A stretch of 64,000 bases of DNA, from sequence record KX130862; one strand, given 5' to 3'. The translations under genes and the position numbers were made by a program. Under the pieces are notes generated by a model. It was not told where the DNA came from. It ran no database searches and saw nothing but the letters and a program-made list of their open reading frames with translations. Origin of the DNA: Shigella phage SHFML-26. Position 1 is the first letter of the stretch. Every line of letters starts with the position of its first letter. Positions 30,601 through 38,790 of the stretch are shown here, one piece after another.

Positions 30601-30778
30601 CTAAACGAATAGGTTCATGAATGCCATATCCCTGAACAGAAATTTCTGTAGTAGGATAAATTCCATTAATATCACCCATGTTCCATGCTTCGTTAAATTG
30701 CTGTTCGCCTGAATTACTAAACCATTCGGCGAAAGCATTTAGCACATCTTCAGAACCTTCAATAATTATCTTTGCCAT
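30557..30778 (-). CDS. hypothetical acidic protein
   Basis: 73-aa ORF. Confidence 0.45.
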   Translation of the reverse strand: MAKIIIEGSEDVLNAFAEWFSNSGEQQFNEAWNMGDINGIYPTTEISVQGYGIHEPIRLVEYDLCTGEEVKYD

Positions 30779-31140
30779 TACAAACTCTCGGTAAAGGTAC
30801 GAGCGATAACATCGCGCTGCTGTTCCGGAGTCAGAGAGTTAAAGCGAACTGCATAACCGGATACACGGATGGTCAGCTGCGGATATTTTTCCGGATGCTT
30901 AACTGCATCTTCCAGAGTTTCACGACGCAGAACGTTAACGTTCAGGTGTTGACCACCTTCAATTTTAACTGTAGGCTGTTGCTCAATTTCAATTTCACGG
31001 GCATGCAAACCGTAGAAAATTTCTGGGTCTACAAAAGAGTCCTCTTTAAAGGTTTTAGAGACAATAATTCGTGCTTGAATACCATCTTCAAAATAAATAG
31101 TACCTTTATGTGTGCCTTCAAGAATTTGATATGCTTTCAT
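30778..31140 (-). CDS. autonomous glycyl-radical cofactor (GrcA/YfiD-like)
   Basis: 120 aa; C-terminal half ([61 protein letters not shown]) is essentially identical to enterobacterial GrcA, including the RVSGYAV glycyl-radical site. Confidence 0.9.
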
Positions 31141-31147
31141 ATAAACC

Positions 31148-31477
31148 TCAATTAGAAAATAAATTTATCCAAGATTGTTCTTTAATTAAAAACGGCTCAG
31201 AATCATATGCCATTAAACTTTGCGTAATTAATCCTTTAAAAGGTCCATCAATAAATTCCATGGTAAAATATGGAATTTTATTCATTAGCCGTGCATTAGG
31301 AGCAGTGCACAAAACTCTGCATCCTTTGAATACGCCTTTTTGTAATTTGTATTGCTTAGGATAAAATTCGCTTAAAATGTTATTTTTTGCCAAAATTTCA
31401 AAATGATTCACCAATTTATTTTTAATAGTTTTTGGCGAAAAATAAAGATATTCGAAAAGCTGAGTGTCTGTCATCAT
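31148..31477 (-). CDS. hypothetical protein
   Basis: Track ORF 31148..31528 trimmed to the ATG at [10 protein letters not shown] to avoid a long overlap. Confidence 0.4.
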
Positions 31478-32061
31478 TGCATTCCGATTACGAAAAACTG
31501 CGGACGAGTAATACCACCAATGCAACATTTACTATTACAGCAGTGTTGCACAGTTTCAATATGAATATCGTAAATTTTATCCATATCAGGAGATTTAACA
31601 GGCTCATCGATTATATACAAAATTCGCGAAAGAGATAAACCTCTGAACTTGCTTCCTTTATTACCGATAAAACTACGGACAGAATCAGTAAATAAGCGGA
31701 ATCGAATATCATCACTAGAATAACGAGAAAATTCTTTTTTAATGTGGCCTGCAGAAATTTTAGCGTAAGCTGAAGTATTAGAAAGAACAATAACTGTTCC
31801 ACCGTCATACAGCCAATTAGCAGCAAAGTTAGTCACAGCAGTTGATTTACCAGATTGGCGTCCACCATCTAGTCGAAGTGTACAATATTGTTTAAGCAAG
31901 TCTTCAAATGGTGGGGTATAATCGTTTTTACAAATTTCTTCTACTCTAGCATCAGAATGGTGTGTAAAAGCATTCATCAGGGATAGATAAGGACCAGTTA
32001 AAAATGTTCTCATTTTATTCTCTCTAAATTTGGGCCATTCCATGGCACATGAATTGTCCAT
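31474..32061 (-). CDS. small P-loop NTPase
   Basis: Walker A GGRQSGKST and Walker B ILYIIDEP; start ambiguous (M1, M7 or M17). Confidence 0.55.
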   Translation of the reverse strand: MDNSCAMEWPKFRENKMRTFLTGPYLSLMNAFTHHSDARVEEICKNDYTPPFEDLLKQYCTLRLDGGRQSGKSTAVTNFAANWLYDGGTVIVLSNTSAYAKISAGHIKKEFSRYSSDDIRFRLFTDSVRSFIGNKGSKFRGLSLSRILYIIDEPVKSPDMDKIYDIHIETVQHCCNSKCCIGGITRPQFFVIGMQ

Positions 32062-32166
32062 TTCTGTATTTACCTATTACCGCACTTGGGCTCGACCTTA
32101 TTACAGGTTGGCGGGAATCCCTCATAGAATCATGAGGTCCAGCTTGTTCCCATATTTCTTATTTGC

Positions 32167-32640
32167 TTATTTGAATGATTTGACGTACTGAATAGAGCCT
32201 TTGCTATTCACGAAAGCGATTTTACCATTTTTATTATACATGGTAGCATTACGCTGATAACCATAAGTTTGTTTACCAGATTGATAACCAACTAATGCAA
32301 AATTATCTTCACCCATTTTATTCTGTTTAGCGCGAATGCGTTCATGACCATGTGCCATAAGAACCTTAGCATCACCAGTTGCAATGGATCGACGAGTTTT
32401 TTCATCTTCAACTGTATTAACAAAGTCGTCAAATGAATCAAATTTAGCATGAGATTTATTATACAATTTTCCATCTACTGCATAATTATATCCCTGTACA
32501 TCCATCTCAACTTCTGTACCATCATCCAATACAGCAGTAATTTTTTGACCTTTTTTAAATTTCAAAAGATCAGTAAAAGATTCAGCAATAATTTGAGAAT
32601 TAATAGCTGCTTCAGTGATAAATTCTTGATATGTTTTCAT
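32167..32640 (-). CDS. internal protein (head-packaged) with capsid targeting sequence
   Basis: 157 aa; N-terminus MKTYQEFITEA matches the T4 internal-protein targeting sequence that is cleaved by the prohead protease. Confidence 0.7.
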   Translation of the reverse strand: MKTYQEFITEAAINSQIIAESFTDLLKFKKGQKITAVLDDGTEVEMDVQGYNYAVDGKLYNKSHAKFDSFDDFVNTVEDEKTRRSIATGDAKVLMAHGHERIRAKQNKMGEDNFALVGYQSGKQTYGYQRNATMYNKNGKIAFVNSKGSIQYVKSFK

Positions 32641-32649
32641 GGGTTTCCT

Positions 32650-33066
32650 TTAAATGTAAATATTTTTACCGTAATACTTATACCAATGTGGTTTCATTAA
32701 AATTTTTTCATCAAGTCGTTGTTGACTCAATTTAATAGCTGATTTGCATGGATTATAATCATTTTTCCATTCTACTGGAATATCGCTGATGTCAGGAACT
32801 TCAGTATCTTTTATACTGAACCTGCGTTTTAAGCATTCCGTTATAATGTCTGATTGACGCTTTCGCAAAAATTCTAACTTATCGTAAAAGAACGTAACAT
32901 GACCAGAACCTAAAATAAACTTGGAAGATATTTTAAAATCTTTAACCCGTTTACCATTTGCCACATGTTTACGAACTATACCAAAAACACGTGGCAATTC
33001 ACGGTATTCTGCGATTAAATGTTGATCAGCAAGTTCAGATACTAAAGTCAAATTAATACGAGTCAT
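32650..33066 (-). CDS. denV: endonuclease V (pyrimidine dimer DNA glycosylase)
   Basis: 138 aa; [17 protein letters not shown]...; length equals T4 DenV; early promoter upstream. Confidence 0.95.
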
Positions 33067-33091
33067 TTTATCCCTCCAAGTAACTGTGAAT

Positions 33092-33121
33092 ATACTATCA
33101 CAATTCTAGGAGAAAGTAAAC
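33092..33121 (-). promoter_or_regulatory. T4-type early promoter of denV
   Basis: GTTTAC, 18 nt, TAGTAT, then GGAGGGA SD before the denV ATG. Confidence 0.55.
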
Positions 33122-33125
33122 AACT

Positions 33126-33656
<531 letters not shown>

Positions 33657-37126: not shown

Positions 37127-37433
37127 TTGCGGCAACCTTGTCGGGGTTCTACCTGCTAAGGCAAGTGTTTGTACGAAACGCCGGGATTCGAACCCGGTTA
37201 TTAAGCAGTTGACGCTACTCAATATTTTTAAAAGGCCATATCTCGACCATATCCGAACGTTCCGTCAAAAACGCTACTCGGCTTATGGCAAAGATATTTC
37301 CTCGAATCGATAATTCGGTGCGCCGTTTCTGTTGTGATAGTAAAGAGCCAGAACATAGTAAAACTGTGGGAGGAACTATACTCCAGGGAACATCAGTCCG
37401 ACGACTTGCCGGTAGCGACCCGGCTTCTTGTCT
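37127..37433 (-). ncRNA. putative small stable RNA region (like T4 species 1/2 RNAs rnaC/rnaD) downstream of tRNA-Arg
   Basis: Non-coding stretch with a tRNA-like T-arm (CCGGGTTCGAATCCCGG on the minus strand near 37181-37197) and strong hairpins; position matches the stable RNAs after tRNA-Arg in T4; boundaries approximate. Confidence 0.3.
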
Positions 37434-37435
37434 GG

Positions 37436-37508
37436 TCGAGGCAGTAGGGATCGAACCTACGACCCAGGACTTAGAAGGTCCTTGCTCTTCCTTCTGAGCT
37501 ATGCCCCG
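37436..37508 (-). tRNA. tRNA-Arg (anticodon TCT)
   Basis: Minus-strand cloverleaf: acceptor CGGGGCA/TGCCTCG, T-loop GGTTCGATCC, anticodon loop CTTCTAA. Confidence 0.8.
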
Positions 37509-37511
37509 TAA

Positions 37512-38177
37512 TTAAAATTTCATTTTTCGACCTTTAAACCATCCTTCTGGAATTGGGTCAGTTTTCTTAATACGTTTAGAAACTTTTTCATCTAATGAAT
37601 GAATCCACATCATACCAAATTGGGAATTCTTTTCACCTTTCTGGTGATTATTTTTAGCGTGAATTTCTTTCATTTTATTAATAGTTTCATCTGAATGGGA
37701 CTTACCCAAGAAAGATTTAGTATTTGAAAATTTCTCTCTATACTTAGGATTATCCCAAAGCTGTTTAAACCTTTCTGAACCCATTTTACGATATTTTTCT
37801 TTAAGGTCTGGGTCGTTCTCAAATCTGGTTTTAAAAGCGGCAGCTCCTTTTAAGGAAGCTTCTTTCTTTTTATCCAAATATTCTTTAGTGTTTAAATGGT
37901 CCCAACCACCTTCACCACCTAATTTCAAATTATAAACATCAGGGCGCTTTAAAAACTCTTCAGTCACAATATTCTTTTCTGACTCAAACATAGAGGTTTT
38001 ATCGTCAAAGAACTCTAATATTTCTTTAGAAAAATTTTCTATACCATACTTATCTTGGGCTCTTTTTAATAATTTACCAGAACCCATATATCCATCATCT
38101 AAATTTTCAGTTGAATGGGCGCCTATATAAATTTTATTATTAATTTTATTTGTTATTTTATAAGTGTAATAGAACAT
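37512..38177 (-). CDS. segB: GIY-YIG homing endonuclease SegB-like
   Basis: 221 aa; GIY-YIG module (YYTYKITN...IYIGAHST...GYMGSG); embedded in the tRNA cluster as segB is in T4. Confidence 0.8.
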   Translation of the reverse strand: MFYYTYKITNKINNKIYIGAHSTENLDDGYMGSGKLLKRAQDKYGIENFSKEILEFFDDKTSMFESEKNIVTEEFLKRPDVYNLKLGGEGGWDHLNTKEYLDKKKEASLKGAAAFKTRFENDPDLKEKYRKMGSERFKQLWDNPKYREKFSNTKSFLGKSHSDETINKMKEIHAKNNHQKGEKNSQFGMMWIHSLDEKVSKRIKKTDPIPEGWFKGRKMKF

Positions 38178-38219
38178 AAATATCTCCTATTTCTAAGAGT
38201 ATTTATGTTCTCAAAATAT

Positions 38220-38290
38220 GGCCCTGGGTGGAATTGAACCACCATCTGGCGATTATGAGTCGCTTGCTTGAACCTTCCAGCTACAGGGCC
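38220..38290 (-). tRNA. tRNA-Ile (anticodon CAT, Ile2-type)
   Basis: Minus-strand sequence GGCCCTGTAGCTGGAAGGTT...CTCATAA...GGTTCAATTCCACCCAGGGCCA. Confidence 0.75.
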
Positions 38291-38296
38291 TTGATA

Positions 38297-38369
38297 TGCT
38301 GATTGACGGAATCGAACCGCCGACCTTCTCATTACAAGTGAGTTGCTCTACCTACTGAGCTAAATCAGC
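38297..38369 (-). tRNA. tRNA-Thr (anticodon TGT)
   Basis: Minus-strand GCTGATTTAGCTCAGTAGGTAGAGC...CTTGTAA...GGTTCGATTCC...AATCAGCA. Confidence 0.8.
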
Positions 38370-38376
38370 GAAATTA

Positions 38377-38463
38377 CGGAGGCGATAGGATTTGAACCTA
38401 TGAGTCGCCGGAGCGACTGCCGGTTTTCAAGACCGGTGCATTAAACCACTCTGCCACGCCTCC
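38377..38463 (-). tRNA. tRNA-Ser (anticodon TGA)
   Basis: Minus-strand GGAGGCGTGGCAGAGTGGTTTAATGC...CTTGAAA...long variable arm...GGTTCAAATCC; G discriminator. Confidence 0.8.
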
Positions 38464-38465
38464 AG

Positions 38466-38539
38466 TCTCCGCGGCAGGATTTGAACCTGCGACATTCTGC
38501 TCCCAAAGCAGACGCTCTACCAAACTGAGCTACACGAAG
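38466..38539 (-). tRNA. tRNA-Pro (anticodon TGG)
   Basis: Minus-strand CTTCGTGTAGCTCAGTTTGGTAGAGC...TTTGGGA...GGTTCAAATCCTGCCGCGGAGA. Confidence 0.8.
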
Positions 38540-38550
38540 TAAATTAAATT

Positions 38551-38623
<73 letters not shown>

Positions 38624-38629
38624 AAACTT

Positions 38630-38716
38630 TGGTACGAGAAGTGGGACTCGAACCCACAAGGAAATCATTCCGCAGCATTTTAAGTGCTGTGCCTTTACCA
38701 ATTTGACCATTCTCGC
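38630..38716 (-). tRNA. tRNA-Leu (anticodon TAA)
   Basis: Minus-strand GCGAGAATGGTCAAATTGGTAAAGGCACAGCACTTAAAATGCTG...long variable arm...GGTTCGAGTCCCAC...ACCA (CCA encoded). Confidence 0.8.
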
Positions 38717-38717
38717 G

Positions 38718-38790
38718 CTGGGAATAAAGGACTCGAACCTTTGCATCCTGGAATCAAAATCCAGTGCCTTACCAACTTGGCTAATTCCCA
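38718..38790 (-). tRNA. tRNA-Gln (anticodon TTG)
   Basis: Minus-strand TGGGAATTAGCCAAGTTGGTAAGGCACTGGATTTTGATTCCAG...GGTTCGAGTCC...ATTCCCAG. Confidence 0.8.

Follow-up and report, generated by a model that had tools for sequence, protein, structure and literature searches.

Shigella phage SHFML-26 carries next to denV, on the side opposite to that of ipII and ipIII in T4, a gene whose product begins with a capsid targeting sequence. What this protein is, how its gene came to lie there and what it might do inside a host cell are the questions raised by the locus. We addressed them by a computational analysis of the window, by which we mean the whole stretch of 64,000 nucleotides from sequence record KX130862.

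The targeting-sequence gene is ip4

The gene is a 157-aa open reading frame on the minus strand, which starts with ATG and whose product reads MKTYQEFITEAAINSQ... / MKTYQEFITEAAINSQIIAESF...

32167..32640, minus strand: ip4 coding sequence, 157-aa precursor, ATG start; DUF7412 and PHROG 3155 over the full length, 98% identity to K3 Ip4

Profile and structure comparisons agree on its identity. The Pfam family DUF7412, whose curated threshold is 27 bits, matches the open reading frame with 316.6 bits (E 4e-95) over profile positions 1-157 of 158, and PHROG 3155, "internal virion protein", matches it end to end (E 3e-101). The best structural match in a library of viral models is UniProt entry Q38388, "Ip4 [Enterobacteria phage K3]", with a TM-score of 0.91. 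On the strength of these sequence matches, the gene is Ip4, an already named T-even internal protein. Public records call it Ip4 in ime09, RB32, RB51, and Shfl2 and ipIV in Kha5h, and the annotation of the RB32 gene adds "similar to T2, RB70 Ip4". With Ip4 of K3, T2, and RB70 (Q38388; DUF7412; PHROG 3155), the SHFML-26 protein shares 98% identity, equal length, a common locus, and a common leader. The preliminary description, which had presented the gene as a new variant, has to be corrected on this point, since the protein is nearly identical over its full length to the described K3 protein and bears a name in several genomes. Published work already covers the gene with its leader and locus, as well as the notion that proteins of this kind are injected to counter restriction.

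Ip4 has a T4-type leader and two conserved protease motifs

The upstream and N-terminal elements of the gene are as follows.

32641..32668, minus strand: conserved ip leader AAAAATATTTACATTTAAAGGAAAC with ribosome-binding site, doubling as the 3' end of denV (six codons and stop); compared side by side with the upstream region of T4 ipII
32611..32640, minus strand: capsid targeting sequence MKTYQEFITE, codons 1-10, ending in an I-x-E prohead protease site; 10/11 against T4 IPII and IPIII, E10 invariant
32581..32610, minus strand: probable second propeptide segment AAINSQIIAE, codons 11-20, ending in I-x-E (E20); E20 invariant

The very start of Ip4, MKTYQEFITEA, matches the targeting sequence of T4 IPII and IPIII at 10 of 11 residues and conforms to the internal-protein leader pattern MKT[YF][QK]EF... 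at the beginning of the open reading frame, so that the suggestion of a genuine T4-type capsid targeting sequence is borne out. The likeness extends to the DNA, positions 32609-32668 (the codons of the targeting sequence and 28 nt upstream) being 92% identical to the start of T4 ipII and 89% to that of ipIII, which excludes chance and indicates common descent. The body of the protein, which had been described as not recognizably IPII or IPIII, indeed resembles neither. In BLASTP, T4 IPIII aligns significantly only over residues 1-13, of which 10/13 are identical. The match to IPII depends mainly on the first ~11 residues and extends over 77 aa, with gaps, at an overall identity of only 31%.

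The T4 prohead protease, gp21, cuts at a Leu/Ile-x-Glu motif, a pattern that fits both I-T-E10 and I-A-E20 of Ip4. The two glutamates are invariant in 14/14 aligned representatives of Ip4 clusters, each preceded by a hydrophobic residue and one variable position ([ILMV]-x at E20), and the second site persists as LNE-S in distant relatives. In T4, residues -10 to -1 of IpIII are annotated as a removed signal peptide (X04567). The leader of T4 IPI ends in ...ITE19, and the length of its mature form, 76 residues out of a 95-aa precursor, gives a leader of 19 aa. We infer that Ip4 is cleaved after Glu10, and probably again after Glu20. If cut at the latter, its mature form would have 137 aa, a mass of 15.5 kDa, and a basic pI of 9.3.

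The position after denV appears to reflect cassette shuffling

In the window, e (33126-33620), denV (32650-33066), ip4, vs.8 (31474-32061), vs.7, and vs.6 follow one another in this order, all on the minus strand. The synteny that had been noticed at the outset holds: SHFML-26 has e-denV-ip4-vs.8 where T4 has e-ipIII-ipII-denV-vs.8, and ip4 thus lies on the other side of denV. The wording that ip4 comes "before denV" is correct in plus-strand coordinates only, because by transcription ip4 follows denV at a distance of 9 nt. Nor can the position be called non-canonical. Ip4 is always encoded in the internal-protein locus between e and vs.8, one of two polymorphic loci of this kind (the other extends from 57B to trna.4), and a denV-ip4 junction like that of SHFML-26 occurs in at least 163 phage records, among them RB51 at 99.6%. 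Other layouts exist as well. The ip4 gene of T2, RB32, Klebsiella phage Mineola, and Salmonella phage S16 directly follows e and precedes vs.8, with no denV there, in contrast to SHFML-26, where denV intervenes between e and ip4; in ime09, the order is e, a small internal-protein gene, denV, and ip4. According to papers that cite it, the study of Repoila et al. 1994 (EMBO J 13:4181) recognized ten or more ip genes by their leaders and placed them in two polymorphic loci.

The segments that surround ip4 can be delimited by comparison with T4.

33067..33125, minus strand: e-denV spacer with an early-promoter-like box, GTTTAC...TGTGATAGTATATTCACA, overlapping an inverted repeat; from the comparison with T4
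32650..33066, minus strand: denV (endonuclease V), divergent allele whose 3' end is fused with the ip leader; PHROG 1183 (E 4e-61) and Pfam Pyr_excise
32156..32166, minus strand: 3' end of the ip4 cassette; homology to T4 begins again at 32155 with GGGAAC..., the sequence that comes immediately after the denV stop in T4
32062..32155, minus strand: ip4-to-vs.8 spacer, homologous to the T4 post-denV spacer and the 5' coding end of vs.8, frameshifted; 94.5% to T4 63779-64942

The flanks are 94-96% identical to T4, ending at 32155 and resuming at 33077, and what lies between differs. Against these flanks, denV is divergent: its 5' 294 nt are 78% identical to the T4 gene, and blastn leaves the 3' part unaligned. 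Its last six codons and stop (AAA AAT ATT TAC ATT TAA) are the conserved ip leader, which in T4 precedes ipII. T4 carries the same box as the e-denV spacer before ipIII and diverged versions of it before ipII and denV, and positions 33074-33111 match the T4 ipIII-ipII spacer in inverse orientation. At the other end, T4 homology restarts about 18 nt past the ip4 stop. Repoila and co-workers are said to have seen promoter/inverted-repeat boxes flanking ip cassettes as a defining feature; in SHFML-26, the leader is common to ip4 and T4 ipII, and there is a promoter box too, but it precedes denV and not ip4 itself.

Compared with T4, the ip4 cassette, consisting of leader, coding sequence, and about 18 nt, is attached to the 3' end of denV via the shared ip leader, and ipIII-ipII are lacking between two promoter boxes. 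The position of ip4 after denV thus appears to be a product of cassette shuffling, an outcome expected of recombination between shared leaders and boxes.

Several smaller observations concern the same region. The C-terminal KNIYI of denV is encoded by the ip leader, and the SHFML-26 type of denV allele is also found without ip4 in some Yersinia phages. In Klebsiella phage KP179 (MH729874 / NC_055768), at about 91.7-92.8 kb, homologues of Ip4 and IPIII adjoin, so the two are not mutually exclusive at the e-vs.8 locus. The 105-nt spacer at 32062-32166, which contains a hairpin, was considered as a small RNA or terminator and rejected on account of its 94.5% identity to the T4 post-denV spacer and vs.8 5' coding end.

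Ip4 is widespread and strongly constrained

A tblastn search finds Ip4 in 469 phage records, as compared with 261 for IPIII. Identity is at least 95% in 305 of the 469 (T2, RB3, RB18, RB33, and many Escherichia, Shigella, and Yersinia phages) and 60-80% in another 159, which are T4-like phages of Klebsiella, Salmonella, and Serratia. Among the orphan internal proteins of sequenced T4-like phages, Ip4 is the most common. In a collection of 5.8 billion proteins, it forms 14 clusters, all at least 60% identical, and searching 1.84 billion representatives exhaustively with a profile adds only three full-length relatives, at about 35% identity. These three (P0015, P0016, and P0017) are metagenomic and appear to come from T4-like phages missing from the phage collection. 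Two of them start with a variant leader, MNFEQFLNES or MNFKDFLNES, in which Leu-x-Glu is kept, and this suggests that the targeting-sequence system with Ip4-type cargo could extend past the known genera.

Selection on the gene was estimated by the Nei-Gojobori method. The dN/dS of ip4 is 0.01-0.05 within Tequatrovirus (dS 0.12-0.23) and 0.12-0.16 against the orthologues of Klebsiella and Salmonella phages. As judged from these alignments, Ip4 is a real and strongly constrained protein under purifying selection, and the diversity of the locus lies in the presence or absence of genes, not in sequence drift.

An AlphaFold2 model of Ip4 is of moderate confidence (pLDDT 75, pTM 0.70), with a disordered leader. 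Sequence and fold searches of the PDB return no significant relative of the mature body, a result that covers the IPI* structure if this is in the library. Mature Ip4 displays no detectable sequence or fold homology to IPI*, IPII, or IPIII, the likeness stopping at the leader. Once the relatives at ~35% identity are included, no invariant acidic or histidine residue is left in the alignment, a pattern more in line with a binder than with an enzyme; an enzymatic role is also made unlikely by the lack of domain matches. An Ocr-type DNA mimic is ruled out by the basic character of the mature form. We regard as noise a PADLOC match to CARF (E 0.008) and an NCBIfam match to a curli synthesis inhibitor, which reaches 18 bits against a cut-off of 300.

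Late synthesis of ip4 probably depends on read-through from e

The start codon of ip4 is preceded by a good ribosome-binding site, AAAGGAAAC. The late promoter consensus, TATAAATA, has no occurrence between e and ip4, and the nearest exact sites, at 33634 and 33647 on the minus strand, are upstream of e. A generic sigma-70 scan yields sites no more numerous than in shuffled sequence. Since the only nearby late-promoter sites lie upstream of e, the late synthesis of ip4 that packaging needs would probably occur by read-through from this gene.

A different picture would follow if the leader were a relic and Ip4 an unpackaged, cytoplasmic early protein co-transcribed with denV. The tight spacing of the two genes, the lack of an own promoter for ip4, with the nearest early-promoter-like box upstream of denV, and the empty late-promoter scan are in keeping with it. 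We nevertheless find this highly improbable in view of the strong conservation of the leader: across the family, the leader and the two Glu sites vary little or not at all, even relatives at 35% identity retaining a variant leader (MNFEQFLNES). Moreover, in T2, RB32, Mineola, and S16, ip4 directly follows the late gene e.

Ip4 as a candidate injected anti-defense protein

Functions are established for several proteins with such leaders. Ip1, Ip2, and Ip3 are inhibitors of GmrSD type IV restriction enzymes. Each acts on a single enzyme, that of E. coli CT596 in the case of Ip1 (IPI*), of ECOR21 for Ip2, and of ECOR17 for Ip3, and there is no cross-protection. The ipIII gene is required for growth of T4 on ECOR17, and leaderless ipIII works when supplied in the host. 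Bas37_0260, a leader-bearing protein encoded at the ipI locus, inhibits McrBC (bioRxiv 10.1101/2025.11.20.689424), and the targets of internal proteins therefore reach past GmrSD. All internal proteins whose function is known thus inhibit type IV restriction enzymes, which makes the proposal that Ip4 is a candidate injected anti-defense effector seem reasonable.

How closely Ip4 resembles these proteins varies. With T4 IPII (Ip2) and IPIII (Ip3), it has in common the 10-aa targeting sequence, the DNA leader, the e-vs.8 locus, and a basic mature form; it differs in that nothing is alike past the first ~11-13 residues, the PHROG families are others, and the two T4 proteins have defined targets whereas the reported GmrSD panel is negative for Ip4. 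T4 IPI* is leader-packaged, is cut after I-T-E at residue 19, and has a compact fold described as novel, and Ip4 parallels these features in having a second conserved Glu site, at residue 20, and a fold without known relative. It is distinguished from Ip4 by its locus (57B to trna.4), its leader subtype (MKTFKEFTST...), and an unrelated sequence. Bas37_0260, which we liken to Ip4 by description only, is also an orphan internal protein that shares the leader alone, and its locus is another.

On this basis, the course of events may be outlined by analogy with T4. The leader would steer the Ip4 precursor into the scaffolding core of the prohead, where gp21 would cleave behind I-T-E at Glu10 and, probably, a second time behind I-A-E at Glu20, and the resulting basic protein of ~15.5 kDa would stay in the packaged DNA and enter the cell with it. 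Once inside, Ip4 could act as a stoichiometric binder that blocks a host nuclease attacking hydroxymethylcytosine-containing or glucosylated DNA. The likeliest target would be a type IV restriction enzyme, or another defense directed at modified cytosine, outside the GmrSD groups already tried. We consider it likely that Ip4 is such a packaged, processed, and injected binder acting against a nuclease of modified DNA, its gene having been placed by cassette shuffling.

Several points run counter to parts of this reading. A late promoter consensus is missing between e and ip4, so that the late expression which packaging needs has to be ascribed to read-through, and the searchable literature yielded no report of virion proteomics or injection for Ip4. 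Silas et al. 2025 assayed 'ip4-10' against representatives of 15 GmrSD groups without reproducible inhibition, the correspondence of their 'ip4' to the present Ip4 being taken from the shared nomenclature (Silas et al. cite Repoila 1994). GmrSD, the most obvious target class, is thus so far negative for 'ip4-10', which speaks against the anti-defense reading. The very strong purifying selection and the conservation across phages of several host genera, for their part, are not what would be expected of a rapid arms race at the surface of the protein. The negative screen and the conservation would both suit an injected effector with a non-nuclease target, be it a conserved host factor (in transcription, the nucleoid, or an exonuclease) or the exclusion system of a rival phage or prophage: the distribution across Escherichia, Klebsiella, Salmonella, Serratia, and Yersinia phages, together with the low dN/dS, is easier to reconcile with a conserved target than with the hypervariable GmrSD, and the GmrSD screen came out negative. 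No domain, motif, or fold indicates such a target, however, and the four targeting-sequence proteins with a defined function all have type IV restriction enzymes as targets, so that we hold this to be fairly unlikely.

The same selection and the same negative 'ip4-10' tests, along with the basic pI and a distribution wider than that of IPIII, could also be accounted for by a protein that is packaged and injected with no anti-defense role, as a basic DNA-associated filler that assists condensation, neutralization, or ejection. This we think unlikely to a still greater degree. In evolution, ip4 is dispensable, T4 doing without it, and it has been swapped with unrelated proteins at the e-vs.8 locus; the compact fold that is predicted exceeds the needs of a charge carrier; and IPII and IPIII, which are also basic and once were without an established function, turned out to be specific GmrSD inhibitors.

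A more novel reading can be put forward tentatively, with less than an even chance of being right. Ip4 might be injected to inhibit a non-GmrSD defense; its unusually strong conservation in phages of several enterobacterial genera would then mirror a conserved and widespread target, and Ip4 would be a broad-spectrum anti-restriction protein with an unseen fold. Candidate targets may include enzymes of the McrBC/McrA type, with unglucosylated hydroxymethylcytosine as their substrate, GIY-YIG CMoRE, glycosylases of the Brig type, and END nucleases. Recent papers on defenses against modified cytosine, of which CMoRE and Brig3-BapA are candidates, make no mention of internal proteins, nor do Yersinia phage papers that include proteomes.

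As a discovery, ip4 of SHFML-26 adds little. Its residual value is practical, in that it encodes the commonest orphan internal protein, with a body that has no detectable relative. Finding the target of Ip4 would fill the remaining gap in the account of how modified T-even DNA is protected on entry, and knowing it could aid the prediction of host range for therapeutic T4-like phages.

Neighboring features of the window

The vs.8 region (31474-32125, minus strand) is frameshifted with respect to T4. A 33-aa open reading frame at 32024-32125 on the minus strand, MRDSRQPVIRSS..., matches the N terminus of T4 vs.8 and then stops, and the rest is in another frame, at 31474-32061. In line with the ime09 annotation, functional vs.8 probably begins at the internal MRTFLTGPY. 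Farther along, vs.6 (30778-31140, minus strand) specifies an autonomous glycyl-radical cofactor resembling GrcA, with a match to Pfam Gly_radical and an RVSGY motif, of a type known in T4-like phages. On the other side of the locus, a cluster of eight tRNA genes lies at 37433-38790 on the minus strand, as in T4. It includes a tRNA with a CAT anticodon that ARAGORN assigns to Met, the T4 annotation having tRNA-Ile at the equivalent position.
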